This document shows, in pieces, positions 23,854 through 60,398 of a DNA stretch of 64,000 bases; position 1 is the first letter of the stretch, and each line of letters opens with the position of its first letter. This stretch comes from Candidatus Levyibacteriota bacterium (lineage in GTDB: Bacteria; Patescibacteriota; Microgenomatia; Levybacterales; UBA12049), in assembly GCA_016186645.1 (NCBI GenBank), contig JACPLF010000005.1:33257-97256 (forward strand), given 5' to 3'. Below the pieces are notes generated by a model. The model did no database searches, had not been told where the DNA came from, and saw only the letters and a list, made by a program, of their open reading frames with translations. A program made the translations under genes and the position numbers.

Positions 23854-23860
23854 CAGTCTT

Positions 23861-23930
23861 TGGCAGGCGGGCGCGCATGGTTTAGGACCATGTCCTTAAA
23901 GGGATGGAGGTTCAACTCCTCTCCGACCCA
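23861..23930 (+). pseudogene. Degenerate tRNA-Leu(TAG) copy: identical anticodon arm, D-loop deleted, 5' half replaced by GC-rich repeat sequence
   Basis: GCGCATGGTTTAGGACCATG is identical to the upstream tRNA. T-arm GGAGG-TTCAACT-CCTCT is present. No matching 5' acceptor strand. Confidence 0.4.
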
Positions 23931-23958
23931 CTATAGTTCTAATTTGAATAATATACGT

Positions 23959-24471: not shown

Positions 24472-24487
24472 TTTGAATAATATACGC

Positions 24488-29947: not shown

Positions 29948-31006
29948 ATGGAAGAAGAGTTGATGCAGATTAAAAATTCAGCGGTTTCAATGATAATTGA
30001 GGCCACGGATCAAAAAGAACTGGAAGAAATAAAACTTCAATTTTTGGGAAGATCAGGAAAATTAACTTCACTGTTTAAAGAAATTACGAAAGTTCCCATA
30101 GAAAGAAGGCGAGAAGTTGGTCAACTCGCCAATGACGTTAAAAATATAATTGAAGAAACCCTTCGGCTAGCTCAGGACAAGGTATCTGATCAAGAATCAC
30201 AATCCCGAAAAGAAAGTATAGACGTAACAGCGCCGGGAATAAAACCTCCAATCGGACACATACACCCTATGACACAAGTACTCTATGATGTGGTTGACAT
30301 ATTCAAAAAGATAGGATTCCAAGTCGCAGACGGACCCGAAATAGAAAGTGACTATTACAATTTTGAAGCACTTAATATCGCAAAAGATCATCCTGCCCGG
30401 GATACTCAACAAACTCTTTATTTAGATACAAGAAATAGTAAAATAAATCCTGGCGAAATAATTTTGAGGACTCAGACTTCTGCAATGCAAGGACGCGTAA
30501 TGGAAAAAGTAAAACCTCCGGTTCGTGTGATTGTTCCCGGAAAAAATTTTAGATATGAACAAGTCGATGCTTCTCATGGATTTGAATTTTGGCAGGTTGA
30601 AGGATTTATGGTTGACGAAAACGTAAGACTAACAGATTTATTCGGAACAATTGATTATGTTCTGAAGAAGTTGATGGGAGAAAGTACCAAATTAAAATTT
30701 GCAACAACTAACTTTCCTTTTGTTGAGCCGGGAGTTGATACATATATTGAGTGTACTGTTTGTAAGGGTAAAGCCCGCCTGCCGGACGGGCAGGGGTGCA
30801 GTTTCTGCAAACATAGCGGATGGAGCGAAATCATGCCGGCTGGAATGATTCATCCAAATGTCTTAAAAGCTGTTGGGTATGATAGTCAAAAAGTTTCAGG
30901 ATTTGCTTTCGCAATAGGCCTTTCCCGTCTCGTAACACTTCGCTATCAAATGGACGATTTGCGTTTGCTTACAAACCCGGATTTAAGAATCCTAAATCAA
31001 TTTTAA
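29948..31006 (+). CDS. pheS: Phenylalanyl-tRNA synthetase alpha subunit
   Basis: Class II motifs. FPFVEPG and GFAFAIGLSRL. Located upstream of pheT. Confidence 0.9.
   Translation: MEEELMQIKNSAVSMIIEATDQKELEEIKLQFLGRSGKLTSLFKEITKVPIERRREVGQLANDVKNIIEETLRLAQDKVSDQESQSRKESIDVTAPGIKPPIGHIHPMTQVLYDVVDIFKKIGFQVADGPEIESDYYNFEALNIAKDHPARDTQQTLYLDTRNSKINPGEIILRTQTSAMQGRVMEKVKPPVRVIVPGKNFRYEQVDASHGFEFWQVEGFMVDENVRLTDLFGTIDYVLKKLMGESTKLKFATTNFPFVEPGVDTYIECTVCKGKARLPDGQGCSFCKHSGWSEIMPAGMIHPNVLKAVGYDSQKVSGFAFAIGLSRLVTLRYQMDDLRLLTNPDLRILNQF
30778..30794. repeat. Palindrome CCTGCC-GGACG-GGCAGG in frame within pheS (read as LPDGQG)
   Basis: 6-bp arms with a 5-nt spacer. Same family. Confidence 0.65.
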
Positions 31007-33606: not shown

Positions 33607-33651
33607 TTAAGCGATTTTAACACACGGAAAAATCAATTGCAAAAATTTATA

Positions 33652-34439
33652 CCCCCCGATTACACCCCGCCCTCCGATTACACCCCGAGGGTGTTTGCCG
33701 TTGACACCTGAGGAAATTTGTGATTTACTGACCATATGCCTTCAAGAATAATTCCTTTTGTAAACGGTGAATATTACCACATTTTTAATAGAGGCGTAGC
33801 CAAAATGCAGATATTTAATAATTTCTATGATTACAATCGTTTCGTAAAAACGATGATTTATTATTCAATTGAAGGACCCAAGCCAAGATTTTCAGTTTTC
33901 ACCCCAACCATATCAATATTGAACATAAATAAGAAAATCGTCGATATTATTTGTTATTGCCTCATGCCTAATCATTTCCATTTCCTCTTGCGTCAGGTCA
34001 AAAAAGGCGGCATTACAGAATTCGTAAGCAGACTCAGTAATAGTTATACAAAATATATCAACATTAAAAATAAAAGAGTTGGTCCTTTATTGCAAGGGAA
34101 TTTTAAGGCTGTTCACGTAGAGACAAACGAACAGCTCCTGCATCTTTCACGATATATTCATCTAAACCCTCTTGTAAGCTATGTCGTAAAAGATTTAGAT
34201 ATCTATAAATGGTCATCCTATCTTGAATATATCGATCTAATTAATAATGGGATCTGCGATAAAAAAATAATACTGGATCAATTTAAGTCTCCTAAAGAAT
34301 ATAGGCAATTCGTTTTAGATCAAGAGAGTTATGGAAAAAAACTAGAAGCGATAAAGCATCAGCTTTTGGATTTGGAGGCGTAATTCCTATGTGCAATCGT
34401 AAGACACCCCGAGGGTGTAAACGGAAGGTGTAAACGGAA
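33652..34439 (+). mobile_element. REP-associated tyrosine transposase (RAYT/IS200-like) unit with flanking hairpin and tandem terminal repeats
   Basis: Identical 15-mer hairpin ACACCCCGAGGGTGT at 33680-33694 and 34404-34418. Tandem CCGATTACACCCC x2 on the left. Tandem GGTGTAAACGGAA x2 on the right, an imperfect inverse of the left repeats. Confidence 0.55.
33736..34383 (+). CDS. REP-associated tyrosine transposase (Y1 HUH transposase, IS200-like)
   Basis: HUH motif MPNHFHFLL. RYIHLNPL...YKWSSY resembles the RayT YIHxNPV...YPWSS catalytic Tyr region. Confidence 0.7.
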   Translation: MPSRIIPFVNGEYYHIFNRGVAKMQIFNNFYDYNRFVKTMIYYSIEGPKPRFSVFTPTISILNINKKIVDIICYCLMPNHFHFLLRQVKKGGITEFVSRLSNSYTKYINIKNKRVGPLLQGNFKAVHVETNEQLLHLSRYIHLNPLVSYVVKDLDIYKWSSYLEYIDLINNGICDKKIILDQFKSPKEYRQFVLDQESYGKKLEAIKHQLLDLEA

Positions 34440-34442
34440 AAT

Positions 34443-36830
34443 TTAAGGTGTAGGCGTGATTGTTAACGTAGGCATTGGGGTAGGAATAGGTGTTTGAGTT
34501 GGAGTCGGAGTGTCGGTTACAATTCTAGTTGACAGCTCAGTTGGCGGATGGTACGAAGGATCGTCTTTATAAGTTTCGTTTACCCACTTATCAATTCCCT
34601 CTTGCCAGCGATTTTTTCCATCCCCTGATGTCGGATCGTCTTCGCGAAACACAATAAATTTACGGGTATCATATTCATTTTTATCAAGCTCGGATGCACT
34701 TGCAATTTTATTGCCATCTGCCTTTGAAACTTTGATTGTTTTGTAAATTGGGCTTGGCCCCTGCGGTTCGGTTCCTTTTATAAAATACTCAGAACGAGTT
34801 GATTGTCCGTCTACTGGCAGCCCTCCGCCCAAAGAATCAATTGTAACGGCAATAACATTGTCAGGTTTTATAAATTCTTCAGATGGTTTATTTTTCAAAG
34901 CCTCCAAAATGATTCTTCTCCAAATCGGCGTTGCTCCTGTCACTCCGGACGCAACATTACCCATAGGTGAATTGTCGTTATTTCCAACCCATGTCGCAAC
35001 CAAAATACTCGGCGTCCAGCCGATTGTCCAGTTATCTCTTTTATCATCTGTTGTTCCTGTTTTTACAGCAATCGCTCGGCTGCCCATATTCAAATAGCTA
35101 TTTACTCCGAAAGTAATAAGTCTCGCATTATTGTCCAAGAGTATATGGGAAATTATGAATGCCACTTCCGGACTTAACACTCTTTTCTTATCTGTTTCTT
35201 TTTGCTCAAACAAAACCTTACCTTTTGGATCTGTAACTTTGAGAATTGCAATTGGATCAGATCTATATCCCTCATTTGCGAATGCTGTATATGCAGCAGC
35301 CAGCTCAAGAGGCTTTACGTCTCCTCCTCCCAATGTCAGAGACAGCCCAAAACGATTTACATTATCCTGAGTCGGCGCAAACGTGCTAATTCCCATATTG
35401 TATGCTGTTGACAGCATGTTTTTAACTCCGACCAAAGCCAAAAGTTTTACAGCAGGAATATTAATTGATGAACCTAAAGCGAATCTTAGCTGGAGAGGTC
35501 CGTGGAATTTACCGTCGTAATTTTTCGGCTCATAATCTTTTTCTTCTCCGGGATTTGGAAAAACTGTTGGCGTATCCATTATTAAAGATGCCGCTGTATA
35601 TCCTCTTTCCAAAGCCGTAGCATATGCAACTGGTTTTATGGAAGAACCGGGCTGGCGAAGTGCCTGGGTTATTACATTAAATTGCCCGCCCTTTGAGGGA
35701 GTATCTTTTTCATCCTCGCCCTCAGCAGATTCATCGAAAAAATCTCTGCTTCCAACCATTGCCAGGATTTCTCCGTTTTTTGAATCCAAGACAATACTTG
35801 CCCCATTTCCAACATTTAGACTCTCTGCATTCTCTACTTCTTCTTTCACAATTTCTTCCGCTTTTTCTTGTAATTTATAATCCAAAGTCGTTGTAACCTG
35901 CAGTCCGCCTTGCTCAACAACATTTTCTCCAAATTGCTTAATCAACAAATCTTTAACATAAAAAGAGAAATGGGGAGCTTTTATCGCGTGCGTTTCTTTG
36001 AGAAACTCGACATTGGGTAATTTTTTTATCGTATCTAATTCCTGCTTTTTAGTAATGTAATTGTCTTCCTGCATTCTTCGCAATACCTCTTTGCCTCTAT
36101 CTATATATGCTTTTGGATTCTGCCCGTAAGGAGAAAAAAAGGAAGGTCTTTGGGGAAGTCCTGCTAAAATTACTGACTCTGTCAGATCCAGATCTTTGGC
36201 TTTTTTTCCAAAATATCTTTCTGATGCTGCTTCAATTCCAACTGTTGTTCCGCCATAGGGAGTGGCATTAAAGTAGAGCTCCAAAACTTGGTCCTTTGTG
36301 TATTTTCTGTCAACCTGAATTGCCAGAATAAATTCTTTGATTTTACGAGTTACTGTCTGTTCGGATGTTAATAGGGTATTTTTAACTAATTGCTGTGTAA
36401 TGGTAGAACCTCCTCCTGATATCCTTCCTCGTAAAATTGCGTTTCTAAACGCTCTGAGATAACCTGTTATTGAAAATCCCTGGTTCTGATAAAAATCTTT
36501 ATCTTCTATGGCAAGTGTTGCCTGCTGTAAAATTTTGGGAATTTGATCTAAAGTTATGTACGTACGATTTTCATCCCGATATATATCGTAAAGAAGAAGT
36601 TCCTGCCTATCGAAAATTTTTGTGGACTGAGGAAAATTGCTGGCAGAGAGTTTTTCAGGAGTAGGTAGCTCCCGGCTAAACCACACAAACATTACAAACA
36701 TGATTACAAAAAGACCAATTAGTCCAAAAAAGGCAAGTTTTGCAATTTTGCTATAAAGAAAAATGCTTGAGGAATGTCGTTGCAATCTGCTGCGTCTGCC
36801 AAACAAAGCCATAAAAACATTATATACCAC
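34443..36830 (-). CDS. Class A penicillin-binding protein (PBP1A: transglycosylase plus transpeptidase) with Pro/Thr-rich C-terminal tail
   Basis: GT51 motifs EDKDFY and GGSTITQQ. Transpeptidase SxxK and KTGT. C-terminal TPTPTQTPIPTPMPT tail. Confidence 0.85.
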   Translation of the reverse strand: MVYNVFMALFGRRSRLQRHSSSIFLYSKIAKLAFFGLIGLFVIMFVMFVWFSRELPTPEKLSASNFPQSTKIFDRQELLLYDIYRDENRTYITLDQIPKILQQATLAIEDKDFYQNQGFSITGYLRAFRNAILRGRISGGGSTITQQLVKNTLLTSEQTVTRKIKEFILAIQVDRKYTKDQVLELYFNATPYGGTTVGIEAASERYFGKKAKDLDLTESVILAGLPQRPSFFSPYGQNPKAYIDRGKEVLRRMQEDNYITKKQELDTIKKLPNVEFLKETHAIKAPHFSFYVKDLLIKQFGENVVEQGGLQVTTTLDYKLQEKAEEIVKEEVENAESLNVGNGASIVLDSKNGEILAMVGSRDFFDESAEGEDEKDTPSKGGQFNVITQALRQPGSSIKPVAYATALERGYTAASLIMDTPTVFPNPGEEKDYEPKNYDGKFHGPLQLRFALGSSINIPAVKLLALVGVKNMLSTAYNMGISTFAPTQDNVNRFGLSLTLGGGDVKPLELAAAYTAFANEGYRSDPIAILKVTDPKGKVLFEQKETDKKRVLSPEVAFIISHILLDNNARLITFGVNSYLNMGSRAIAVKTGTTDDKRDNWTIGWTPSILVATWVGNNDNSPMGNVASGVTGATPIWRRIILEALKNKPSEEFIKPDNVIAVTIDSLGGGLPVDGQSTRSEYFIKGTEPQGPSPIYKTIKVSKADGNKIASASELDKNEYDTRKFIVFREDDPTSGDGKNRWQEGIDKWVNETYKDDPSYHPPTELSTRIVTDTPTPTQTPIPTPMPTLTITPTP

Positions 36831-38294: not shown

Positions 38295-40334
38295 ATGAAC
38301 CTTCAGATGCCAGTTGAGAAAGCCGGAAGGATATATAAAATGTATGCACGGCGCCTTGAAAAATTGGGCATAAAAACTTTTGAAGATTTCTTGTATCACA
38401 TCCCAAGCCGCTATGATGATTTTTCTTTAATCTCAAAAATCAACAGAGTCCAGCCCGGCGAAGTGGTTACTATTCAGGGTACTGTTTCTGAAATAAATAA
38501 TGAATTTACAAAAAATTTCAAAAAACTGCAAAGAGCAGAGATTGCAGATGACACCGGCACTATCGAAGTTGTGTGGTTTAATCAGCCTTATCTAACAAAA
38601 GTTATTAACAAAAACGACAAAATTTCTCTATCTGGAACTGTAGATTGGTTTTCAAGAAAATTAGTCATGCAGTCTCCGGAATATGAGATATTAAACGACT
38701 CACCAACAATTCACACCGGAAGATTAGTGCCTGTATATCCTGAAACTCGGGGAATAACATCCAAATGGCTTAGAAGACAGGTATATAAATTGATTAAAGA
38801 AAACCTTCAAACATTTGTCGAATATCTTCCCGATCAAATTATTAACGAGCATTCCCTGATAAAATTTGACGCCGCAATTAAACATATTCACTTCCCGCAA
38901 AATAAAGAATTGGCTGAAAAGTCAAAAAAAAGACTGTCATTTGATGAACTTTTCCTTTTACAGCTCTCTAGCCTGGAGAGAAAATTAAACTGGAATAAAA
39001 CTTTGGTGAGCAATCCATTTTCTGTAGATAAATTTAAAAATGAAACTGAAAATTTTTTAAACAGATTACCATTCAAATTAACAAGCGCTCAAAAAAGAGT
39101 AGTTGAAGAAATATTTAAAGATTTATCGAAATCCAAACCTATGAATAGGCTATTGGAAGGAGATGTCGGATCGGGAAAAACAGTTGTATCAGCAATAGGG
39201 ATGTATTTGGCTTTTTTAAACGGCTTTCAATCTGTTCTTATGGCTCCTACAGAAATTCTGGCTCAGCAGCATTACAAAACAATCTCAAAATTACTAGAAC
39301 CTTTTGGAATTAAAATTGGATTTGCAACCGGAAGTACAAAAACTAAATTAAAAAAATTTGATGTCATGGTCGGAACTCATGCTGTTTTAGAAAAGGGAAT
39401 TAACTTTGAAAAATTAGGACTTGTTGTCATTGACGAACAGCAAAGATTTGGGGTCGAGCAAAGAGCGATAATACGAAGCCGAGGTAAAAACCCTCACCTC
39501 CTTACTATGACAGCAACACCAATCCCCCGAACAATTGCATTAACTTTGTATGGAGATTTGGATCTTTCGATTCTGGATGAAATGCCTATTGGAAGAAAAC
39601 AAATCAAAACCTGGCTTGTGCCCCCGGAAAAACGTCTTAATGCTTATGCATGGATTGAAAAAGAAATTAAAACAACAAAAAGCCAGGTATTTATAGTTTG
39701 CCCTTTTATTGAAGAATCGGAAACTATGCAGACTGTGAAAGCGGCAAACAAAGAATTTGAATATTTGCAAAAAAATGTCTTCAAAAACCCGCCTGCCGGC
39801 GAGGCAAGCCTAAAACTTGGACTTTTGCACGGAAAAATGAAAGCAAAAGAAAAAGAAGAGGTTTTGACTAAGTTTAGGGATGGAAAAATTGATATTTTGG
39901 TTGCAACTCCTGTTGTTGAGGTTGGAATTGACATTCCAAATGCAGCAATTATTGTGATTGAAGCAGCAGAGCGTTTTGGTCTTGCGCAATTACATCAACT
40001 TCGAGGAAGAGTAGGAAGAGGAGATAAACAATCTTATTGCCTATTATTTACAGAGTCAAAGAATCCGCAGACTCTTGAACGATTAAAAGCCATGGAAAAG
40101 CATAATTTTGGCGCAGAATTAGCAGAACTGGATTTAAAGCTTAGAGGACCTGGGGAAATTTATGGAACCATGCAGCATGGCCGAAAATTCCTCAAAATCG
40201 CAAGTTTTTACGATCTGGATTTGATAAAGAGAGTTAGATTGGCTGCTGAAAAAATATTTCCAGACCTAAATAGATATCCTAAGCTTTCAGAAAAATTAAA
40301 AACCATAAATCTCAAAAAAGTCTCTCCCGATTAG
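38295..40334 (+). CDS. recG: ATP-dependent DNA helicase RecG
   Basis: Wedge domain. Helicase motifs GDVGSGKT, DEQQRFG and TATPIPRT. Confidence 0.9.
   Translation: MNLQMPVEKAGRIYKMYARRLEKLGIKTFEDFLYHIPSRYDDFSLISKINRVQPGEVVTIQGTVSEINNEFTKNFKKLQRAEIADDTGTIEVVWFNQPYLTKVINKNDKISLSGTVDWFSRKLVMQSPEYEILNDSPTIHTGRLVPVYPETRGITSKWLRRQVYKLIKENLQTFVEYLPDQIINEHSLIKFDAAIKHIHFPQNKELAEKSKKRLSFDELFLLQLSSLERKLNWNKTLVSNPFSVDKFKNETENFLNRLPFKLTSAQKRVVEEIFKDLSKSKPMNRLLEGDVGSGKTVVSAIGMYLAFLNGFQSVLMAPTEILAQQHYKTISKLLEPFGIKIGFATGSTKTKLKKFDVMVGTHAVLEKGINFEKLGLVVIDEQQRFGVEQRAIIRSRGKNPHLLTMTATPIPRTIALTLYGDLDLSILDEMPIGRKQIKTWLVPPEKRLNAYAWIEKEIKTTKSQVFIVCPFIEESETMQTVKAANKEFEYLQKNVFKNPPAGEASLKLGLLHGKMKAKEKEEVLTKFRDGKIDILVATPVVEVGIDIPNAAIIVIEAAERFGLAQLHQLRGRVGRGDKQSYCLLFTESKNPQTLERLKAMEKHNFGAELAELDLKLRGPGEIYGTMQHGRKFLKIASFYDLDLIKRVRLAAEKIFPDLNRYPKLSEKLKTINLKKVSPD
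39792..39808. repeat. Palindrome CCTGCC-GGCGA-GGCAAG (one mismatch) in frame within recG (read as PAGEAS)
   Basis: Same family. Confidence 0.6.
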
Positions 40335-49796: not shown

Positions 49797-50566
49797 ATAT
49801 CTCGATCCTGACTCTTTTCCCCGAAATGTTCCAAGGTCCTTTTGACTATTCCATTATAAAAAACGCGAAAGTGCAAAAGAAAGTTGATATTGAATTTATA
49901 AATATTCGGGATTTCGGTATCGGAAAACATAAAGTTGTTGACGATAAACCTTATGGAGGAGGAATTGGTATGATATTAAGAGTTGATGTCCTGGAGAAAG
50001 CAATTTCTGAAACAAAAGACCTGCCCGCCATCAGCTCGCGCCGAAGGCAAGCGCAGGCGGGCAAAAGACCCGCTTCGCCCGCCCAGACCCGGCGAGGCTG
50101 GCCGCGAGGCGAGCTAACGACTAAAGACCAAAGGGTAATTCTTCTAAGTCCCCATGGGAAAACTTTTAATCAGAAAAAAGCCTTGGAGCTTTCCCGCCTC
50201 AAACATCTTATTCTTGTATGCGGACGTTATGAGGGAATTGATGAAAGAGCAAAAGAATTTATAGACGAAGAACTGTCCATTGGAGACTTCGTGGTTACTG
50301 GCGGAGAAATTCCGGCAATGCTGGTCGTAGATGCTGTGGTAAGACTTATTGATGGCGTCCTAAAGAAAGGCGTGACAACTTCGGAGTCTTTTTCGCCAAT
50401 TCTAGAATACCCACAATACACCAAGCCCAATGCTTTCAAAAACTTAGACGTTCCTCCTATTCTCCTCAGCGGAGATCATAAGAAAATAAAAGATTGGAGA
50501 GATAATGAAGCGCTCATTATAACTAATAAACTTCGCCCTGATCTACTTAGCCGGAAAAAATCTTAA
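49793..50566 (+). CDS. trmD: tRNA (guanine37-N1)-methyltransferase TrmD carrying an in-frame GC-rich insertion of about 32 aa
   Basis: FPEMF, DKPYGGG, LVCGRYEGIDER and GGEIPAM motifs. Inserted segment PAISSRRRQAQAGKRPASPAQTRRGWPRGELT is encoded by 50019-50114. Confidence 0.85.
   Translation: MNISILTLFPEMFQGPFDYSIIKNAKVQKKVDIEFINIRDFGIGKHKVVDDKPYGGGIGMILRVDVLEKAISETKDLPAISSRRRQAQAGKRPASPAQTRRGWPRGELTTKDQRVILLSPHGKTFNQKKALELSRLKHLILVCGRYEGIDERAKEFIDEELSIGDFVVTGGEIPAMLVVDAVVRLIDGVLKKGVTTSESFSPILEYPQYTKPNAFKNLDVPPILLSGDHKKIKDWRDNEALIITNKLRPDLLSRKKS
50019..50114. repeat. GC-rich (about 70% GC) palindromic element inserted in frame in trmD
   Basis: Starts ACCTGCCCGCC and contains the inverted repeat TGCCCGCC/GGCGGGCA. 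Related copies at 22838-22912, 23672-23770 and 53704-53777. Confidence 0.6.
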
Positions 50567-51276
50567 AAGGGAGTTGTACTTTCTTGCGCAGAAGAGGTAG
50601 AAATAGGAATTTGTTGGAAAACAGCTACATTCTCAAAGAGACTCAGCTTATTTATTATTTCCAGTCCTTTTTGGGAAATTGGCTGTATAGGTGAATCCTC
50701 TTTGTACTCCGAGGAACCTAAGGGTTTATAGTAAAAAGATATTTTTACACTGGATGCTGCATTTTTTACTTTTATTATGGTTACTTCTGATAGGGGAACT
50801 GTTTTGGCTAAAGTTTCAACAAAACTATTTACTCCTGAAGCATTCGCATTAATCGGTACAAGTAAACTTATTGATGGAAAATCCTCCTGTTTCTTAGTAT
50901 CTTCTAAATCTCCTATTTGGAGCGAAAAATTACCAAGGATGATACCTTTTTTTTGAGATGCAAAGTAAATAGCATTTAAGATTCCGCTAAAATCTTTATT
51001 TAATGGTAACGCAAGGTTCAAAGTCTTAAGTCTTGCATCAAGAGCTTTCTCATCAGTATTTGTAAGCACGTTCAAATTTTCTTTCAATGTTTGGAGCTTC
51101 AAGGATGCTTGTTTGGCTTCTTCCTGCGCTGCTAACAAAAGCCCAAATTGCGGAATCACAAACTGGAAAAAAAGAACAATGCAAGCTAATATAATGACTG
51201 ATGGCAAAATGAAATTTTTGTTGCGTTCAAAAATGAATTTTAAAGATTTAAAATCGGCGTTTATTTTTTCGTTCAT
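50563..51276 (-). CDS. Type IV pilus assembly protein PilO-like
   Basis: N-terminal TM plus coiled-coil. Position after pilM and pilN. Confidence 0.5.
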   Translation of the reverse strand: MNEKINADFKSLKFIFERNKNFILPSVIILACIVLFFQFVIPQFGLLLAAQEEAKQASLKLQTLKENLNVLTNTDEKALDARLKTLNLALPLNKDFSGILNAIYFASQKKGIILGNFSLQIGDLEDTKKQEDFPSISLLVPINANASGVNSFVETLAKTVPLSEVTIIKVKNAASSVKISFYYKPLGSSEYKEDSPIQPISQKGLEIINKLSLFENVAVFQQIPISTSSAQESTTPF

Positions 51277-51278
51277 AT

Positions 51279-51812
51279 TTATAACTCCGCTTCTACTGAA
51301 ACTTGATAAGAATTTTTGCTTTCATCAAAAAGTAAGGTGCTAAGGGTTAAAGATTTTATTATTTCTTTTTTCCTAACCATGTCTGTTAAATTATTTATTA
51401 ATTCCCCAATTGCTGAGAGAGAAGTTGATTGAGCTGTCATAACAACAGCTTTGTCGTCAATTTCCAAATCTTCAATAAATAGTCTGCCGGGTATCTTTGC
51501 CAATAAGGAATTATTCACATAAGACAGATCAATTCTCCTTTGCAGAATCTTTTCAATATTATTTATTCTATTATTCAAAACAAAAAGTTTTGCCTGCCTA
51601 TCCTGAAGCTTCGATATTTTTTCTCTAATTTCATTTTGCTGTGTTCTTACAGAGGAGGGGTTGATAATTTGAATTAGTAAAAACAGGAGAAGAGATAAGC
51701 TGCCAACTCCTATCAAAGACGTGATTGCAATAAAATTAAATCTTTTGACGCGCCTTAATCTTTTTAACGTCTCTTCATCTGCACGCAGTAGAAGGTTTAT
51801 ATTTGTATTCAT
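51279..51812 (-). CDS. Type IV pilus assembly protein PilN-like
   Basis: Short cytoplasmic N-terminus, TM, coiled-coil. Follows pilM with a 4-bp overlap. Confidence 0.55.
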   Translation of the reverse strand: MNTNINLLLRADEETLKRLRRVKRFNFIAITSLIGVGSLSLLLFLLIQIINPSSVRTQQNEIREKISKLQDRQAKLFVLNNRINNIEKILQRRIDLSYVNNSLLAKIPGRLFIEDLEIDDKAVVMTAQSTSLSAIGELINNLTDMVRKKEIIKSLTLSTLLFDESKNSYQVSVEAEL

Positions 51813-52840
51813 ATATCTCTCATTGCTAGCCCTAGTGCAATAGTATAATCAGTTGCGCCGTTGAGTATTTCGGGGGAAATCTGTTGATTTGCAAAAATTT
51901 TCCAAGGATTTGCAATTACTGTCTCTATACCCAAATTCTCTGCGAAAAAAATATCTATGCCTGGAAGCCTTGCGGTCCCTCCGGATAACAACACTTGCTG
52001 AATTATTTCGCCGTCCTTATATTTCTGGGAATAAAAGGCCAGCGCTTTTCTTATTTCCAAAAGAATTGAAGACAGAATTGGCTCTGTAGATTTACCGATT
52101 TTTTTTCCGGCTCCTTCTTTTGTAAAACCGTATGTTTTTTTATACTCTTCTCCTTGAGATGGGGTTAAGCCAAAGTCTGCTTCGATAGATCTACTTATTG
52201 CATTGCCACCTGTTTGTATTGAATAAGTTAAAACCAAAATTCCATCTTTAATTATCGCCAAAGAAGTATTGATTGCGCCAATGCTCACAATTATTGTTGG
52301 GGGGAAATTTGGCGTAACCAAAGCTCGAACAATTGCTAAAGTTTCTGTTTCTATGGAATTTAAATTAAGACCTCCCATCTGAAGTACTTTTTGATATTTG
52401 TTAATAAGATTTGTTGGCGCTCCTACCATCAAAACCTGCATTTTTTCCTCGTTCGTTGGACTTGATGGACGCTTCAAAACGTTCCAGACTAAAGTTATTG
52501 TTGATAGCGCGACTGGAATATGACGCTCTGCTTCCCAATAAATTGCCAAAGATAGCTCTTTGTCCGTGAGGGGCGGCATTTCTATAACCTTTGTATACAC
52601 CTGATTATCAGGGAGAGCAATATTTACACTTTTGCTATTTACTTTCAAATCGTCTACAGTTTTCCCCAAGGCTTGAGCCATTTCACCCTCATCCAGAGGA
52701 GACTCTGAAAGCATGCCCTTTGCAGGCGTCGGTGCAACCTGAAAGGCATCAAGAACGTAGTTATTGTTTTGGCGGGAGAGAGAGATTGCCTTGATTTTTG
52801 TCAAGCCAATATCTAGACCGATAGACTTATTAAATACCAT
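51809..52840 (-). CDS. pilM: Type IV pilus assembly ATPase-fold protein PilM
   Basis: Actin-like ATPase fold GLDIGLTKIKAISL. 343 aa. Confidence 0.8.
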   Translation of the reverse strand: MVFNKSIGLDIGLTKIKAISLSRQNNNYVLDAFQVAPTPAKGMLSESPLDEGEMAQALGKTVDDLKVNSKSVNIALPDNQVYTKVIEMPPLTDKELSLAIYWEAERHIPVALSTITLVWNVLKRPSSPTNEEKMQVLMVGAPTNLINKYQKVLQMGGLNLNSIETETLAIVRALVTPNFPPTIIVSIGAINTSLAIIKDGILVLTYSIQTGGNAISRSIEADFGLTPSQGEEYKKTYGFTKEGAGKKIGKSTEPILSSILLEIRKALAFYSQKYKDGEIIQQVLLSGGTARLPGIDIFFAENLGIETVIANPWKIFANQQISPEILNGATDYTIALGLAMRDI

Positions 52841-52854
52841 ATTTTTTTTGAAAA

Positions 52855-53799
52855 CTAATTGGCCACAAAAAGGCCATACGATAGATAAGGCAGATAAGTC
52901 TGTGAATATCCCTCAAATGCAACTATCTTAATGGTTGACGATCCGGATGTTCCGGTTGAAGTGATCATATATCCCTGAGAAGGCAAAGATGTGCAATTGT
53001 TTCCCGCATGATTACAAGCATATACTCCGACCACAGCGTCTTTATAAATCGGAATCACTCTCATAAAAACAATGTCATTAACTCCTTTTGCAAGATCGCT
53101 GTTTGCTCCTGTTTCCGGTGTCCTATTTCCAAAAGTGAAGTTTGAAATTCCTGTGACGGTAAAACTTCCTGAATCAGCTTGAGTAAAATTGTTTACTGAG
53201 ATTCGTGCGGGACAGCTATCATAGGCATAACGATAAGATTTTATTTCTCCTGTATTTTTATTTCTTAGAATTACTATTGCCTGAATCGCAGCAGGAGCTG
53301 TTGACGTACCGCATGCCTCCTGGGGAGTACCCCAATATAAATGCAGAAAATTGGGAGACAGAGCAGAAGAATAATCCGGGGTACCATCTGCATTATGATT
53401 GACAAACCAAACATCGGCTCCCTCGTCTTTTGGGACAGCATTGCCTCCGTTTATTAAAAAACTGGAGCTTTGAATCTGCGTGAATTGAGTGGCATAACTA
53501 GAGTTATTGCTTGGATTATTTCCCTGTACTGCTATAGGAACAGAACCCTGTATTGCTCGCTCTATTCCTGCTTCTGCGGCAGCCAAAGCTTTTTGAGATT
53601 CTGCTTCTTCGGTTGAAGTCCTAAGGCTCGTAATGCTTCTTGAGGCAAGAGTAAGACCTATAGTTGATGCTATTATAATAACCAGAATAACTATCAAAAG
53701 AATCTGCCCGCCTTGACTCTCGCATCGCGCTCGCCTCGATTCGGCGAAGCGGGGCGAAGCGGGCGGCGAGGCAGGGCTCTTTTCTTTCCGCTCAGACAT
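52855..53799 (-). CDS. Pilin-like secreted protein (divergent N-terminal hydrophobic helix); N-terminus encoded by a GC-rich repeat
   Basis: GQILLIVILVIIIASTIGLTLA helix after a charged leader. No canonical GFTLIE motif. Confidence 0.35.
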   Translation of the reverse strand: MSERKEKSPASPPASPRFAESRRARCESQGGQILLIVILVIIIASTIGLTLASRSITSLRTSTEEAESQKALAAAEAGIERAIQGSVPIAVQGNNPSNNSSYATQFTQIQSSSFLINGGNAVPKDEGADVWFVNHNADGTPDYSSALSPNFLHLYWGTPQEACGTSTAPAAIQAIVILRNKNTGEIKSYRYAYDSCPARISVNNFTQADSGSFTVTGISNFTFGNRTPETGANSDLAKGVNDIVFMRVIPIYKDAVVGVYACNHAGNNCTSLPSQGYMITSTGTSGSSTIKIVAFEGYSQTYLPYLSYGLFVAN

Positions 53800-53908
53800 A
53801 CATATTTAGCATAACAAGTGCTTTATATTATTGTCAACCTCATGGTTCTTGCCCCGTAACATCGCCCTTGCGACGCGTGCACGTAGAGCACGGGAGCAAG
53901 TAAGATTG

Positions 53909-55342
53909 TTATGGGGCTACGTTCTGCCAGGCTCTTGGGATATATCCGGACAAAGAAGGATAATGAAGCATGAAATCAGGTCTTTCAATAAAGCTGACAG
54001 AAGGGTAGGAAGAGTTGTTTGCGCAAAGGGTTCTGTTGTTTATGAAAGTTCCGGTTGGCCCGCCGATTCCTCTTCCCGCATTTGCAACAACTGTACCTGC
54101 AATGTTAAGCCTTAGATCAACAGTCGGACAGGAATTTGCGCCATCAGCTATGAAATTAACATCTGCGGAATAAAGTCCTTGTATTGTTGGGTTTGCTGAA
54201 GAAGCCTGCTCTCCAATACTTCTATCAACAGTTATGTTTCCTTTAGCTGAAAATATAACAGTAGAAGTATTGGGAACTGAAATTTTTTCATTGATATTTA
54301 AATTTCCATTTATTAAAATTACATAGTTTTGGTTTGGGGGAAAGGCATATCCGCTGCCATTAAGATTAAGATCGCTGTTTATCCAATAAACTCCATGTTC
54401 AACATTTGCGTTCCAAGCGCAATTAAAAGCATCTCCATTACTGCAAAGACTCTCTGCTCCTTTTTTGGCAATTGCAGATGCATTCACGGTATCTAGTAAG
54501 AATCTGTAGGAAGTGTAAATCAGATTATGGGTATCTGTAAAAACATCAGGATATGAAAAACTCCCAACTTGCCAGTTAAATGGATTGGGGCTTGCTTGTC
54601 CATTCCCAAAGAAAGGAGCAGTTTTCCCTGAGAATATTACACCTGGCATTCCGCCAGTGCCGGGAATTGAAGCGTATTTCCCTGAAGGCAGAATATTTGT
54701 AAATCCTGCGTCCCATCTCATGTCAGAACCTGCGGACTGGAACCAGGCAGAAGCAAGATTTGTCACTCCGCTATTTAGATTAATAATGTTCCCGCTGGAA
54801 CAGCTTGCCTCACTTGTTATGGGGACAGAACACCCTGCTCCGACATTAACAATAAGGGAGTTTCCTGGAGTTGTCGGATATGTGAAGCTATATCCTGCAG
54901 GCAGTCCTGAATAAGTAATTGCATACTGGCCCGAAGGAAGACTGTTAAAAGAATAATTTCCTGTCCCAACAGGACTTGAATAAGAGCCTGAAGCAGGAAG
55001 CCTGGTTATTGCAATAGCGCCTGTGTAATTGGAGTCTCCAATGCTTTTTGTATCGCTATTGACATCATTGAAAATCTTTCCTGATATGGAATAAGTGGGG
55101 ATAGGGGTTGGAGTGGGAGTTGAGGTTGGAGCCGGGGTGGGAATGGCGCAGGAACAGGAACCTGTGATAATGCAATTAGTATTCTGCATAGAGTTACTGC
55201 CGTTTGGCTGGCAGCTGAGATCTACGCTTGCTGCGCAAAAGGTAGAGGTGTTTGAGAGGGAAAAAACACTACAGGAAGGACCATTATAGAAATTCAGAGT
55301 GCATGAATAACTGTTGCATCCTGCCGCAGGGGGGAAGGACAA
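53909..55342 (-). CDS. Secreted Cys-rich protein with PT linker and SdrD-B/Cna-B-like domain (adhesin-like)
   Basis: PTPAPTSTPTPTPIPT linker. SGKIFNDVNSD motif. Confidence 0.4.
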   Translation of the reverse strand: MSFPPAAGCNSYSCTLNFYNGPSCSVFSLSNTSTFCAASVDLSCQPNGSNSMQNTNCIITGSCSCAIPTPAPTSTPTPTPIPTYSISGKIFNDVNSDTKSIGDSNYTGAIAITRLPASGSYSSPVGTGNYSFNSLPSGQYAITYSGLPAGYSFTYPTTPGNSLIVNVGAGCSVPITSEASCSSGNIINLNSGVTNLASAWFQSAGSDMRWDAGFTNILPSGKYASIPGTGGMPGVIFSGKTAPFFGNGQASPNPFNWQVGSFSYPDVFTDTHNLIYTSYRFLLDTVNASAIAKKGAESLCSNGDAFNCAWNANVEHGVYWINSDLNLNGSGYAFPPNQNYVILINGNLNINEKISVPNTSTVIFSAKGNITVDRSIGEQASSANPTIQGLYSADVNFIADGANSCPTVDLRLNIAGTVVANAGRGIGGPTGTFINNRTLCANNSSYPSVSFIERPDFMLHYPSLSGYIPRAWQNVAP

Positions 55343-56007
55343 TAAATAGAATAGTTAACAGTTGCATCCGAAATCATAAGACGATTGGCAGGATTAGCGC
55401 TGGTAACTGTGCAGCCGGCAGGAGGAGATGTAGTAAGTGTTACATTAACTGAGTGCTGATCCGGCCAGATGCGGGGAGTCTGGTAAACCCCAAATGAATC
55501 TGTAATGTAGGGACCTAAAAGATTGTCTGCAGTTACATCCTTTACTAGAATGTGGGCTCCGCTACCATAGTCATCATCGCCTGCATTCCTATCAAATACA
55601 CCATTATTGTCATTATCGTAATATACAGTGCCCTTTATCAGCCAGAGGGTTGGGGTGGGGGTGGGGGTTGGTGTATTAGTCGGGGTTGGAGTGGGGGTGG
55701 GGAGATTATTGCAACAGCGAAATTCATAAAGGGGAGTAATGCCGCGTGGTCGATTTTCACAATAGTCGTATCCTAATCCTCCTTGAGCAATTGGAGTAGT
55801 GCAACATTGAGTGCCTGTAAATCCACCAGATCCAGTACAGTCTTGCTGAAAGAGATTGCTACTGCAAGAAGGCAGACTAGATTGTGTCGCCCACCAAGAA
55901 GTACAAGTCTGAGCAAATATTTTTTGAGGAATTATTAGAACAAAGATAACTACAGAAAGGAAAATTACAAGCGACTTAACTATAGACGAGAATAAATTCT
56001 TTTGCAC
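55294..56007 (-). CDS. Secreted protein with PT linker and SdrD-B-like calcium-binding domain
   Basis: Signal peptide. PTPTPTNTPTPTPTPT linker. GTVYYDNDNNGVFDRNAGDDD motif. Confidence 0.45.
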   Translation of the reverse strand: MQKNLFSSIVKSLVIFLSVVIFVLIIPQKIFAQTCTSWWATQSSLPSCSSNLFQQDCTGSGGFTGTQCCTTPIAQGGLGYDYCENRPRGITPLYEFRCCNNLPTPTPTPTNTPTPTPTPTLWLIKGTVYYDNDNNGVFDRNAGDDDYGSGAHILVKDVTADNLLGPYITDSFGVYQTPRIWPDQHSVNVTLTTSPPAGCTVTSANPANRLMISDATVNYSIYCPSPLRQDATVIHAL

Positions 56008-56026
56008 TAATTAATTGTAGCATGAT

Positions 56027-57052
56027 TTAATTTTTCTGCAAAAGCATGAAGACATGATCTTGTCCCAGAGAATCTTTGGTTGTAAAGAATTGAGGAGTTA
56101 ATAAATATAAAGCTTTATCAGTTATCGTAGCTTCTGGCCCTATTCTTTCTCCCTCGTATGCCTCCACAGACACTCTTACTTGCTGATTATCGTTCTGAGT
56201 TTGTATAAGGGGGGTAGCCCGATCGATCATTGGAAGATCTTTCCATCCCGTATCTCTAAAGTATTGTTTATCATCAAATCGTGGAATATTTATGATTGGT
56301 TCAAATGGGGTCTGGTCTAAAGAAAATATCTTTATTAAGTAAGTTTTGTTAGCTGACTTATCATGGAAAACAATTGCCGCTCCATATGCCTTAGTTGCAT
56401 CCTGTCCAGACTCGGAAGTCCCAAAACCAATAGCTCCGTTGCCATTTACTGGAGATACTATGACTGTGCCTTTTGGCAAAACGAAATCTATATTGTTCTT
56501 GTCATTTTCTGCTTGTGCCTGTTTCTGTAATTCTTCTGTTGGAAGTCTATCAGACAGACTTTTTATATAGCTTGCTGTCGTTCCCTCTGGAAGAATAAAT
56601 GGCAAAATAAGACTAATCGTATTACCTTTTTCAATAATCTGTTCTGGAAATTGACTTTGAACCTCAGACAAATTACCATGATTAATGTTATTTTCTCCAA
56701 TTAATCCTTCGTCTCTGGTATTATCAAATGTATTTGGTACATCTCTTGCAGATACTATTCCCAATAAATTATTTACAGTTCTGTGGACGGCAGGGACTTC
56801 CAATTGGTAAGCAATGCCTCCCGCACTAGCAAGACCCAGTCCTGCGAGAGTCCACCTTAGAGCAAGGTTATTCAGTAGTCTTTGAATCAATGATCGTTTT
56901 GTTTTTTTGGGTTCAGGTTCACCCGAGGGTTCAAGCACTGGTTGAGGCTTGGGAGGAACAATAACTCCAACTCTCTCTTGTGCAGGAGTTGATCTAAAAA
57001 ATATGCCTCGTCTGTGACCACCTTCTGGACCCACCATATCTTTTGCCTCCAT
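56027..57052 (-). CDS. Hypothetical membrane-anchored protein (Pro-rich N-terminus)
   Basis: 341 aa ORF in the pilus-associated operon. Confidence 0.3.
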   Translation of the reverse strand: MEAKDMVGPEGGHRRGIFFRSTPAQERVGVIVPPKPQPVLEPSGEPEPKKTKRSLIQRLLNNLALRWTLAGLGLASAGGIAYQLEVPAVHRTVNNLLGIVSARDVPNTFDNTRDEGLIGENNINHGNLSEVQSQFPEQIIEKGNTISLILPFILPEGTTASYIKSLSDRLPTEELQKQAQAENDKNNIDFVLPKGTVIVSPVNGNGAIGFGTSESGQDATKAYGAAIVFHDKSANKTYLIKIFSLDQTPFEPIINIPRFDDKQYFRDTGWKDLPMIDRATPLIQTQNDNQQVRVSVEAYEGERIGPEATITDKALYLLTPQFFTTKDSLGQDHVFMLLQKN

Positions 57053-57092
57053 TTAAACCGATTGTAATGCTATGCTGCGGGTTTGTCAAATT

Positions 57093-57869
57093 TTAAATTC
57101 CTGTATCAGCGAATTCGGCCGTACAGCTTTTCCAACTGTAAATAGTTGCAGCGCTTTTACCGTGCTGACAGAAGCTAACAATTGAGCCTGCTGTTCCATT
57201 TAGAATAGTAAATGGTCCATACATACTTATTCCTCTTCTTATTCCATCATTCTCTTCCCAAAAATTTTCACAGTAAGTTCTGTCATAAAGAGGCTTACAT
57301 CCCCATTTTCCATTAGGTTGAATAACAAATAATGAACTGGTTGTTGCTTCAGCAGACTGTATGGAAGGCGAAGAAGCTTGTGTTGTAGGAAGTTGGATAT
57401 TAAGTGATGAGATTTCTTCCGGATTTGCAGGTAATATAAATACTGCGCTTATTGTTCCTTCTTTCTTTTCCCAGGATATAGTAAAACTATCTTTAGTAAT
57501 TTTGTCTTGAGTAACTATCATGTCTGATTTTGAAGGAATTAAGGACGCATTAAGAATTTTTGGCAGAAAGTTTGCTAAAGTGTCTTTTGCATTTTTTTCA
57601 AGGGAGATAACAGGAGTTGGTGAAAATACAATATTCTGCTGGTTTAATGAGATATTTTTTGTTTGAGTTGTTTGTCTTGGCAGCCAGCTGAGATATTTGG
57701 GGAATGCGTCTGAGACAGAAAGAATGTTGAAATAGTTAAGTGTTCCGAAGAGTAAAAAGAGAACAATCCCTACAAAAACAATCTCAAAAACTCCTATTTC
57801 CAAAAAAGCAAGAGCTTTAAGATTCCATTTTCGTTTCTCCATTGGGTATCGCAGAGGAGTTTCTTCCAT
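57093..57869 (-). CDS. Hypothetical protein with pilin-like N-terminal hydrophobic segment
   Basis: LAFLEIGVFEIVFVGIVLFLL segment. First gene of the operon. Confidence 0.3.
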   Translation of the reverse strand: MEETPLRYPMEKRKWNLKALAFLEIGVFEIVFVGIVLFLLFGTLNYFNILSVSDAFPKYLSWLPRQTTQTKNISLNQQNIVFSPTPVISLEKNAKDTLANFLPKILNASLIPSKSDMIVTQDKITKDSFTISWEKKEGTISAVFILPANPEEISSLNIQLPTTQASSPSIQSAEATTSSLFVIQPNGKWGCKPLYDRTYCENFWEENDGIRRGISMYGPFTILNGTAGSIVSFCQHGKSAATIYSWKSCTAEFADTGI

Positions 57870-57913
57870 AGTTTTATATTAAACTCTTATTGAAGATTTA
57901 GTCAAGCAAACGA

Positions 57914-58219
57914 TTATACTGCTTGGGGAGCTTTTTCAAGGATTTTAATTCTCTTCTCGTGGTTTTCAACTTCTTCACGCAGTTGTGAGGTCTGGTGAAT
58001 AGATAAAACTATATCTTGTTGTAAGTCCTCGAGCTGACCCGATATGTCATCAAGTTTGGTCAATACTTCATCCTTGTATTGCTTATGTTCTCCGCGCATT
58101 TCCTGTATTTCTATTTTTAGTTCTCCTTTTAGCTCCTGCATTTCTCCCCTTAAAGATTGCCCTAGAAGTTTTAAGTCCTTTTTCGTGGCAAGTTCTTCTG
58201 CTTTGGTTTTTTGTTTCAC
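57914..58219 (-). CDS. Hypothetical coiled-coil protein
   Basis: 101 aa heptad-rich ORF. Confidence 0.3.
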   Translation of the reverse strand: MKQKTKAEELATKKDLKLLGQSLRGEMQELKGELKIEIQEMRGEHKQYKDEVLTKLDDISGQLEDLQQDIVLSIHQTSQLREEVENHEKRIKILEKAPQAV

Positions 58220-59274: not shown

Positions 59275-60398
59275 ATATAGCCTTAGCGCATGATTACATC
59301 AAGGAGTATGGTGGTGCCGAGCGTGTTTTGGAAGCGCTGCATGAGATTTGGCCGGACGCGCCAGTTTTTACATCTGTTTATTTACCGGAATTTTTGGGTC
59401 CGCATAAAGAGAGATTTAAAAATTGGAATATCAGAACATCATGGTTACAGTTTTTGCCTTTTAAAAATAAGCTAATAAGCCCGATTCGGCTTATAGCACC
59501 TTTTGTGTTCAAAAGTTTTGATTTTTCTAAATTCGATGTGGTAATTGTTTCCGCCACTGGCGCATATGTTAAGCAATTTAAAATTAAAAATTTAAAATTA
59601 AAAATTGTGGAATATTGCCACACGCCGCCAAGGTATCTTTATGGTTATGCAACTGCAAGAGAATGGAAAAATAATTTAATTTTTAGAGTTTTTGGAGAAA
59701 TTGCGAATCATTTTTTGCGCCTTGTGGATTTTAAGTCTAGCCAAAATGTAGATTTTTTCATCGCAAATTCCCACAATGTAGCGGGAAGAATTAAAAAGTT
59801 TTACAGGAAAGATTCAAGTGTGATTTACCCACCCGCCATGCAAGACAGCTTGCTGGCGTTACGGGCAGGTCCGCCATCTACTCCTTACTTCCTCGCAGGA
59901 GGAAGAATTGCGAGGCCAAAACACATTGATTTGATAATTAAAACTTTTGGAAAATTAGATTTACCACTTAAGGTTTTTGGAAGAGGGTTTGCAGGGGCAG
60001 ATTTAAGTTCCAAAAATTCCAACATAGAATTTCTCGGGGAAGTGAGCGATGAAGAGAAAATAAAGTTAATGAGAAATGCGAAGGCTTTTGTTTTTGCCGC
60101 CGAAGATGAAGATTTTGGAATAACTCCGGTTGAGGCAATGTCAGTTGGCACGCCAGTTATCGCCTTTGCGTCAGGAGGAATTTTGGAAACGATAATTGAC
60201 GGGCAGACGGGAGTTCTTTATTACTTTAATGATTTAAACCTGCCTGCCGGCAAGGCAGGTCATTTAAGTGAAGCAATCCGTAAGTTTGAGAAAATGAAAT
60301 TTGACAGAGAGTTAATAATAAAACACGCGCAAAAATTTTCAAAAGAAAGATTCAGAAATGAGATTTTTGAATTCGTAAACTCAAAGTTTAAAAAGTAA
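59271..60398 (+). CDS. Glycosyltransferase family 4 (GT-B, group 1)
   Basis: C-terminal EDFGITPVEAMSVGTPVIA EX7E-like motif. Confidence 0.8.
   Translation: MNIALAHDYIKEYGGAERVLEALHEIWPDAPVFTSVYLPEFLGPHKERFKNWNIRTSWLQFLPFKNKLISPIRLIAPFVFKSFDFSKFDVVIVSATGAYVKQFKIKNLKLKIVEYCHTPPRYLYGYATAREWKNNLIFRVFGEIANHFLRLVDFKSSQNVDFFIANSHNVAGRIKKFYRKDSSVIYPPAMQDSLLALRAGPPSTPYFLAGGRIARPKHIDLIIKTFGKLDLPLKVFGRGFAGADLSSKNSNIEFLGEVSDEEKIKLMRNAKAFVFAAEDEDFGITPVEAMSVGTPVIAFASGGILETIIDGQTGVLYYFNDLNLPAGKAGHLSEAIRKFEKMKFDRELIIKHAQKFSKERFRNEIFEFVNSKFKK
60239..60259. repeat. Palindrome CCTGCCTGCCGGCAAGGCAGG in frame within the glycosyltransferase (read as LPAGKAG)
   Basis: Same family. Confidence 0.7.

Follow-up and report, generated by a model that had tools for sequence, protein, structure and literature searches.

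In the Candidate Phyla Radiation (CPR, Patescibacteria), contact with the host is believed to depend mainly on type IV pili, the tip adhesins of which are largely unknown. We analyzed a pilus locus in a Candidatus Levybacteria metagenome-assembled genome (MAG, locus tags HYW62_*), using a 64-kb stretch of the 185-kb contig JACPLF010000005.1, called the window below (all 64,000 nt). Eight minus-strand open reading frames (ORFs) follow one another from 57869 to 50563, each where a preliminary description had placed it (Table 1). The first five are named here by product length in amino acids (aa), g258, g341, g237, g477 (HYW62_01450) and g314 (HYW62_01445), and the last three are pilM, pilN and pilO. 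The earlier account took them for one co-transcribed operon with minimal spacing and 4-bp overlaps. From 5′ to 3′ the spacers measure 40, 19, −49, 109, 14, −4 and 2 nt, so that they reach 109 nt and include one 49-nt overlap; the only 4-nt overlap within the eight is that of pilM and pilN, the other one being between pilO and the convergent trmD. We consider it more probable that the interval holds two independent functional units side by side than a single eight-gene pilus/adhesin operon. Unit 1 (53837-50563, ORFs 53799-50563) would be the distal operon of a conserved Levybacteria type IV pilus cluster, composed of the pilX-like g314, pilM, pilN and pilO. Unit 2 (57905-53909, ORFs 57869-53909) would be a distinct cassette of three genes, two of them for single-pass membrane proteins and one for a large secreted surface protein; this last gene is split here into g237 and g477. 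The units would adjoin owing to a break in gene order at the promoter-bearing spacer before pilX, a place that holds the minor-pilin gene x199 in most relatives. The pilus system itself is ordinary and of an already known kind, seen at a gene-order break, and the "adhesin" part is one gene of an uncharacterized, previously undescribed cassette.

Table 1. Positions of the features discussed, counted from the first nucleotide of the window
Feature	Position	Strand	Description
Promoter-like site before g258	57876-57905	-	similar geometry to the site before g341 (-10 box ends 6-8 nt before start)
g258, cassette gene 1	57093-57869	-	small single-pass membrane protein; conserved N-terminal transmembrane (TM) motif, variable Cys-containing outer domain
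Promoter-like site before g341	57061-57089	-	TTGACA-17-TACAAT, 11/12 matches, ends 8 nt before ATG
g341, cassette gene 2	56027-57052	-	N-terminally anchored membrane protein, conserved LPxGTxIxAPxxG motif
Promoter-like site before g237	56014-56042	-	similar geometry to the site before g341 (-10 box ends 6-8 nt before start)
g237, N-terminal part of large gene	55294-56007	-	signal peptide (cleavage ~IFA/QT), Cys-rich module 1, Pro/Thr (PT) linker 1, SdrD-B-like domain 1
C6 run, frame break	55329-55334	-	~150 nt of PT linker missing relative to L069 and P0057
g477, C-terminal part of large gene	53909-55342	-	Cys-rich module 2, PT linker 2, SdrD-B-like domain 2 (~aa 83-190), beta-solenoid (~aa 190-465), tail
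GC-rich structured repeat element, intergenic	53844-53902	-	GC island in spacer after large gene; fold -25.8 kcal/mol, z -2.9
pilX-pilMNO promoter	53808-53837	-	TTGACA-18-TATGCT with TG; -10 box ends 8 nt before ATG
g314, PilX/GspK-like minor pilin	52855-53799	-	GC-expanded leader, then G/QILLIV..., 54-residue N-terminal helix, beta-rich head, no Glu at +5
GC-rich repeat, pilX leader	53699-53798		100-nt GC-rich island
pilM	51809-52840	-	cytoplasmic actin-like protein of the pilus assembly platform; TIGR01175 and PF11104
pilN	51279-51812	-	bitopic membrane protein, 177 aa; N-terminus MNTNINLLL; family profile and gene order
pilO	50563-51276	-	bitopic membrane protein, 237 aa; family profile and gene order
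GC-rich repeat, trmD	50013-50130		
GC-rich repeat, pheT	31300-31324		
GC-rich repeat, pheS	30771-30795		
GC-rich repeat, recG	39785-39809		
GC-rich repeat, glycosyltransferase	60236-60260		
GC-rich repeat, rarA-like	1977-2004		

The two-unit arrangement is seen best against related loci. Metagenome loci with a g314 homologue (46 loci) were collected, along with loci from exact-protein look-ups and from a genome scan with 11 closer sequences. Among the 40 metagenome loci with a visible upstream neighbor, 39 shared one order, as did L015, L016 and L067: pilB-pilT-pilC-pilin(s)-pilD-T2SSG-like-mp171-mp154-x195-x199-pilX-like-pilM-pilN-pilO, followed by the convergent trmD-KH-S16-rnc. The window retains only the last four genes of this canonical cluster. 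A tblastn search of its 64 kb with all ten upstream proteins of the close relative L016 (best E 0.07) recovered no pilB, pilT, pilC, pilD, pilin or usual minor pilin, an inspection of every ORF in the window likewise gave none, and no G[FM]TLIE-type pilin motif occurred in its six frames. These results agree with the earlier statement that PilB, PilT, PilC and a canonical GFTLIE pilin are missing from the window, and extend it to pilD. The preliminary description had itself named missing synteny between the upstream ORFs and pilMNO in relatives as part of its refuting test. In most relatives this synteny was absent: about 42 loci carry minor pilins at that place and four a cassette-type gene.

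The promoter of the pilX-like gene bears on the operon question most directly. TTGACA-N17/18-TTGTTATGCT (cTTGTTATGCT) lies upstream of pilX in nearly all of ~45 loci and ends 6-8 nt before the start codon. Because over 40 related loci have this strongly conserved promoter, which is of the sigma-70 type, directly before the pilin-like gene, regardless of which gene lies upstream, pilX-pilMNO would form its own transcription unit, and co-transcription of all eight genes as a single operon appears unlikely. Promoter-like sites precede the 258-, 341- and 237-aa genes as well. The pilX-pilMNO mRNA is probably leaderless or nearly so, given how close the promoter lies to the ATG. We also observed that −10 boxes end 6-8 nt before the starts of four window genes (Table 1) and of homologues elsewhere, with the same short geometry in L065 upstream of 10001 and 11807. 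This observation points to leaderless mRNAs as a common feature of the lineage.

Within unit 1, the identity of PilM is unambiguous. It matched TIGR01175 (E 1.5e-57, 195.2 bits, cut-off 133) and PF11104 (E 3e-48, 164.9 bits, cut-off 27), with the PilM profile match spanning residues 5-342. The presence of PilM, PilN and PilO, as described earlier, is therefore secure for PilM, which lies well above curated cut-offs, and PilN and PilO were recognized only through family profiles and gene order. As a single sequence, the PilN candidate matched no Pfam or NCBIfam model and the PilO candidate was not recognized by either (PF04350, E 0.11). Family profiles were built from 17 (PilN) and 19 (PilO) homologues out of related loci; their top PDB matches were Myxococcus xanthus PilN (3jc8_Na, E 0.022) and PilO (3jc8_Oa, E 2.3e-4, residues 36-172), respectively. 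The positions of the two candidates, after pilM and after pilN, were conserved in all loci. INLLP is the PilN N-terminal motif bound by PilM, and the PilN candidate begins with the closely similar MNTNINLLL. PilM would clamp the PilN N-terminus from the cytoplasm, and PilN and PilO would form the bitopic membrane pair of the alignment platform.

The product of g314 resembles a PilX/GspK-type minor pilin. It matched PilX_N (PF14341) with E 5.8e-4 and 20.2 bits, below the gathering threshold of 25.5, covering profile positions 2-51 of 51. Its family (519 matches) is well conserved in Levybacteria, and some members carry PF14341 or bear the names PilX or PulG. The structure model had a 54-residue N-terminal helix and a pilin-type architecture with pseudopilin fold matches. 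Across the family the leader varies from ~6 to ~31 residues, and the following G/QILLIV(I/V)LV... is nearly invariant, including Gly-1 and Gln+1; this pattern fits a leader that is cleaved off. The window protein has a leader of ~31 aa, compared with 6-10 aa in many relatives, and the GC-rich island codes for it, which bears out the preliminary remark that a GC-rich repeat supplies the N-terminus of this pilin-like protein. Of the pilin N-terminal signal, the conserved Gly, the hydrophobic helix and a sub-threshold PilX_N match are present, but Ile/Val replaces Glu at +5, as in GspK-type tip pilins. ComZ has likewise been noted to have no Glu at +5 (PMC6561018). By analogy with GspK and ComZ, a prepilin peptidase would remove the leader after the conserved Gly. 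The missing Glu5 may be the signature of a filament-capping subunit, and we infer from it that g314 would enter the filament first and hence sit at the tip.

The cassette of unit 2 also occurs away from pilus genes. Full cassettes were found with no pil genes nearby in L010, L065/L066 and L074, and the large gene without pil genes in L005 and L073. A second copy is present in the same MAG (HYW62_00165 to 00175). The L065 cassette has the left-hand neighbors of the one in the window (5′-3′ exonuclease, glycosyltransferase, pyrH and recF, 74-92% identity); to its right are genes for 23S-rRNA-IVP, cobalamin adenosyltransferase and ribonucleotide reductase, and L005 and L073 have these right-hand neighbors too. 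Equivalent promoter-like sites precede the g258 homologue and the 931-aa large gene of L065.

Neither of the two small cassette proteins matched Pfam or NCBIfam. The TM motif of g258 reads FLEIGVFEI..LFGTLNYFNILSVSDAFPxYLxWLPRQT, and its 40 homologues are all hypothetical proteins. In L010, the gene in the corresponding place of the cassette shares 64% identity with the g258 N-terminus; further homologues lie in L065/L066 (45%) and L074, and a paralogue, HYW62_00165, in the same MAG. The g341 family comprised 69 representatives and is colinear with a 306-aa gene of L065 (26% identity, E 5e-4) and a 271-aa gene of L074. Assignment of g341 to the M23 peptidases was rejected, as the family profile touched one short motif in the PDB at a nonsignificant E of 0.05-1.5. 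A 101-aa coiled-coil ORF (57914-58219, minus strand) with a sub-threshold PIN_8 match lies 44 nt upstream of g258; it is not in the L065 or L010 cassette.

The large gene had been described as two genes for secreted adhesin-like proteins of 237 and 477 aa. The PT linkers, Cys-rich stretches and SdrD-B-like motifs noted in them are present, but sequence comparison identifies the two ORFs as one gene, split in this sequence. Only the 237-aa ORF carries a signal peptide; g477 has none and starts at a TTG inside g237 (the NCBI call is 426 aa from Met52). One C added at the C6 run gave a 699-aa open frame with 24 Cys. Homologues reach ~1100 aa as single ORFs, and the full-length ones begin with a signal peptide and contain Cys-rich modules, PT linkers, SdrD-B/CarboxypepD_reg-type immunoglobulin (Ig) domains and a ~400-aa C-terminal region ending ERPDFxLNxP....WQExAP. 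The N-terminus of g237 aligns with those of the full-length homologues P0011 and P0017, and g477 ends in the conserved tail ERPDFxLxYP....WQxxAP.

Two intact versions located the break. L069, an independent Logan assembly of the same population (3 samples) found by exact look-up with g341, equals the window from g341 to the C run and then diverges into an in-frame PT linker, ...YCPSPTPTPTPTPTPCPGCIPTNTPTPAPTST. P0057 (HYW62_00175), the paralogue in the same MAG, reads in frame through ...YCPSP, a PT linker of ~50 aa and AAGCNSYSCTLNFYNG (AAGCNSYSCTL...); its final 46 residues are the same as g477 residues 6-51. The frame is broken in the window because about 150 nt of linker is missing here, a gap of a length that shifts the frame. 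The loss is either an assembly repeat collapse or a strain-specific deletion. Exact look-up of the paralogue P0209 returned a 938-nt contig only, and that of the 237-aa product no match, probably owing to start-codon choice. Phase variation at C6 was set aside, because the C tract is short and what has been lost at the break is a linker segment, not a simple change in length, as was programmed −1 frameshifting, since a slippery heptamer is absent and the gene is found intact and in frame elsewhere. The tail of a class A penicillin-binding protein of the window (34443-36830, minus strand) is PT-rich as well (TDTPTPTQTPIPTPMPTLTITPTP); PT linkers are thus general in exported proteins of this genome and not specific to the adhesin-like gene.

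From its parts, the large protein would be Sec-exported and disulfide-rich, with a signal peptide, two rounds of Cys-rich module, PT linker and SdrD-B-like domain, a beta-solenoid and a C-terminal tail. It lacks both an LPXTG signal and a C-terminal TM segment, ending ...FIERPDFMLHYPSLSGYIPRAWQNVAP. Membership in the SdrD B-like domain family (PF17210) holds at the family level: the family profile matched SdrD structures with E 1.3e-17, and 23 of 29 members matched SdrD_B (8 of 29 matched DUF7305). The window proteins individually remain below Pfam cut-offs (g237 versus SdrD_B, E 0.01). The AlphaFold2 model of the 477-aa part (pLDDT 78.6) had two folded regions after 74 disordered residues. 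Its beta-solenoid is of the ice-binding-protein/ComZ fold type and matched ice-binding proteins slightly better than ComZ; the family profile matched neither, and no sequence-level similarity to either was detected. In the ComZ study, the nearest fold to the ComZ solenoid was itself an ice-binding protein (PMC6561018). The likeness to ComZ therefore reflects a shared fold and is no sign of pilus function. The protein also contains no pilin domain into which the solenoid would be inserted, as in a ComZ-type tip pilin. Its most likely role is in binding or adhesion.

A cassette-type gene lies directly upstream of pilX in 4 of ~46 loci, namely the window, L030, L068 (GCA_030649355.1) and L007; the contigs of the last three begin inside the large gene. 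The window and L030 share a homologous junction, with the same GC-rich element right after the large-gene stop codon. In L030 this element (L030 80-165) lies between 11-nt direct repeats, ATAACAATCTT, overlapping the stop codon, and in the window the second repeat copy is deleted. The L030 direct repeat ATAACAATCTT looks like the target-site duplication of a mobile-element insertion. The GC-rich hairpin was rejected as an intrinsic terminator between the large gene and pilX, because it has no T tract. Sliding identity showed the window to be like L030 upstream of the pilX ATG and like L015/L016/L018 downstream of it, which points to recombination or repeated breakage at the promoter-bearing spacer.

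Several observations weigh against two independent units. In a neighbor-joining tree of g314, PilM, PilO and TrmD, the four adjacency loci fell at four separate places, each beside canonical loci (an earlier tree of g314 and PilM took in three of them), and such scatter is more than one random rearrangement would give. L067 encodes a genuine minor pilin that has a GFTLIE signal and is extended by an SdrD-B/PT/Cys-rich part with 66% identity to g477 residues 83-195. This fused minor pilin (670 aa, L067 10001-12013) occupies the mp154 (GspH-like) position of a canonical cluster and has a Cys-rich C-terminal region; its gene sequence indicates that at least one relative displays such modules on its pili. 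The C-terminal domain of the large protein can be likened to the pilus-tip ComZ solenoid about as well as to ice-binding proteins. The spacer hairpin has no T tract, so read-through transcription from upstream is possible, and promoter-like sites over the whole region are not enriched relative to shuffled sequence. In addition, pilB, pilT, pilC and pilD are only presumed to lie elsewhere in the genome.

These observations leave room for a refined form of the model in the preliminary description, in which the large protein is a Sec-exported non-pilin adhesin carried on the PilX-like tip pilin in the manner of PilY1/PilC, its gene having been recruited for co-expression. The four phylogenetically scattered adjacencies, the junction common to the window and L030, the L067 fusion and the strongly conserved C-terminal tail, a potential docking peptide, all favor it. 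We nevertheless regard this model as rather unlikely: in ~42 of 46 loci the cluster contains no such gene, at least five loci carry the family and its two partner genes but no nearby pil genes, and pilX has its own conserved promoter. The solenoid, moreover, matches ice-binding proteins slightly better than ComZ and neither at the sequence level, and the protein lacks a pilin domain and is encoded by a gene that is frame-broken in this sequence. That the surface protein and the pilus are functionally linked is a minority possibility. In a similarly improbable version of it, the large protein of some Levybacteria would be an accessory adhesin of the pilus tip that docks on the Glu5-less PilX-like pilin through its C-terminal domain or tail, its gene having been brought repeatedly beside pilX-pilMNO, and the two small cassette proteins would be export or anchoring partners. 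Such a tip adhesin may be a functional analogue of PilY1/ComZ, structurally unrelated to PilY1 and without a pilin domain.

The arrangement could also be an artifact of assembly, in that g258-g341-g237 and g477-pilX-pilMNO are not contiguous and the contig was cross-joined or collapsed in a repeat of two paralogous cassettes, with the frameshift as its scar. A cross-join at the C run is conceivable because the two cassettes share that stretch. The break falls exactly where L069 (3 samples) diverges from the window, and HYW62_00175 stands at the end of a 32-kb contig of the same MAG, its final 46 aa matching g477 residues 6-51 at 100% identity. In this population, every Logan contig breaks in a PT linker or GC-rich repeat, and in L065 the cassette with the left-hand neighbors of the window precedes non-pil genes. 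We consider a cross-join improbable even so: a k-mer assembler needs reads across the C6 junction, which is probably real in at least some genomes, and the end of a cassette-type gene lies directly upstream of pilX in unique sequence anyway, as in L030, L068 and L007.

Selection on unit 1 was estimated as the ratio of nonsynonymous to synonymous substitution rates (dN/dS) against the closest canonical relatives. The values were 0.08 for the pilX-like gene, 0.07 for pilM, 0.14 for pilN and 0.16 for pilO, compared with 0.11 for trmD and 0.09 for rnc. Lineage-specific substitutions in pilX-pilMNO of the window did not exceed those in trmD. By these measures, pilX-pilMNO is maintained under purifying selection. 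That it is instead an orphan remnant of a deletion of pilB...x199, no longer building a pilus, is very unlikely: no other pil gene lies within 64 kb and the canonical upstream block is missing, but the four genes are intact with dN/dS of 0.07-0.16 like their housekeeping neighbors and no substitutions in excess of the trmD level, the promoter is intact, and the same arrangement is kept with intact genes in three other divergent lineages. As the operon is maintained, we infer that other parts of the genome encode the remaining pilus machinery, and pilX-pilMNO presumably works with the pilB, pilT, pilC, pilD and pilins located there. The 90% sequence clusters of the L016 proteins, consulted for these genes, were either singletons or unnamed.

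Short GC-rich palindromic repeats (60-68% GC in a genome of 37% GC) were also found in frame inside housekeeping genes of the window, encoding peptides such as PAGKAG (Table 1). TrmD has 257 aa in the window and 225-228 aa in relatives. The motif CCTGCC[CT]GCC occurred 10 times, against 1.04 expected. These elements resemble Rickettsia palindromic elements, and a literature search found no description of in-frame GC-rich palindromic elements for Patescibacteria. An IS200/Y1-type transposase gene (33736-34383, plus strand; PF01797, E 5e-7, above the cut-off) lies beside a GC-rich tandem at 33650-33705 and may encode a repetitive extragenic palindrome (REP)-associated tyrosine transposase that mobilizes the GC-rich elements. 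Y1_Tnp genes are also found beside the pilus cluster in L015, L016 and L067. Elsewhere in the window, the adjacent genes 23815-24471 and 24473-25549 (repeat family D5) share an N-terminus, NNIRMNQKGNVN, followed by a TM segment, and the second contains a Hint (intein/hedgehog-type) domain (PF13403, E 8e-7).

Herein, our analysis defines a conserved Levybacteria pilus gene cluster with a separate promoter for its pilX-pilMNO operon, as well as a previously undescribed three-gene cassette, and corrects a two-ORF annotation to one large modular surface-protein gene. The adjacency in four lineages and the pilin fused to the same module offer a candidate link, open to testing, of the surface protein to the pilus. 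If this link is true, it provides a handle on host recognition by these episymbionts. Otherwise, the locus is just a rearrangement junction of the ordinary kind, and it cautions that PT linkers and GC-rich repeats can collapse in MAGs.

The SdrD-B-like domains of the large protein recall the B-repeats of Staphylococcus aureus SdrD and other MSCRAMM proteins, but the LPXTG sorting signal, A-domain and SD repeats are absent, and PT linkers, Cys-rich modules and a C-terminal beta-solenoid are found instead. The solenoid is comparable to the DUF3494/IBP-1 ice-binding fold and to the Thermus ComZ solenoid (PDB 3WP9, 6BG8 and 6QVI), with no detectable sequence similarity. The ComZ solenoid is set into a pilin fold, whereas the window protein, which lacks a pilin domain, carries a Sec signal peptide, and nothing in it suggests ice binding. 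Like the PilY1/PilC tip adhesins of Pseudomonas, Neisseria and Myxococcus, it is a large non-pilin protein exported with a Sec signal peptide, and in four loci a protein of this type is encoded beside the PilX-type minor pilin gene. Unlike them, the window protein has no beta-propeller or vWA domain, and the genes of its family usually lie apart from pil genes, in the company of two genes for partner membrane proteins.

With the GspK/PilX-type tip minor (pseudo)pilins (PilX_N; Escherichia coli GspK, PDB 3CI0), g314 shares the hydrophobic N-terminal helix after a conserved Gly, the absence of Glu5, a head larger than in other pilins and the last place in the minor-pilin gene block; it differs in that its head is an unrelated beta-sandwich, its Pfam score is sub-threshold and its leader is swollen by an inserted GC-rich repeat. 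In the Saccharibacteria strain TM7x, type IV pilus locus one encodes PilB, PilT, PilC, PilD, PilM/N/O and several pilins, among them a large minor pilin proposed as the tip protein (PMC11623550), the same parts list as the canonical Levybacteria cluster of the relatives. Compared with that locus, the window has only the last four genes of such a cluster, preceded by genes unrelated to pili. The same three proteins in the same order make up the type IVa PilM-PilN-PilO subcomplex of M. xanthus (PDB 3JC8) and PilMNO of Thermus thermophilus. In the window, PilM exceeds curated cut-offs, PilN combines an INLLP-like N-terminus with one TM segment, and the PilN and PilO profiles match their 3JC8 counterparts, although both proteins are too diverged for single-sequence hidden Markov model searches. 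PilP and PilQ are absent here, as expected for a cell without an outer membrane, and the Levybacteria operon differs from the M. xanthus machine in opening with a minor pilin gene under its own near-leaderless promoter.

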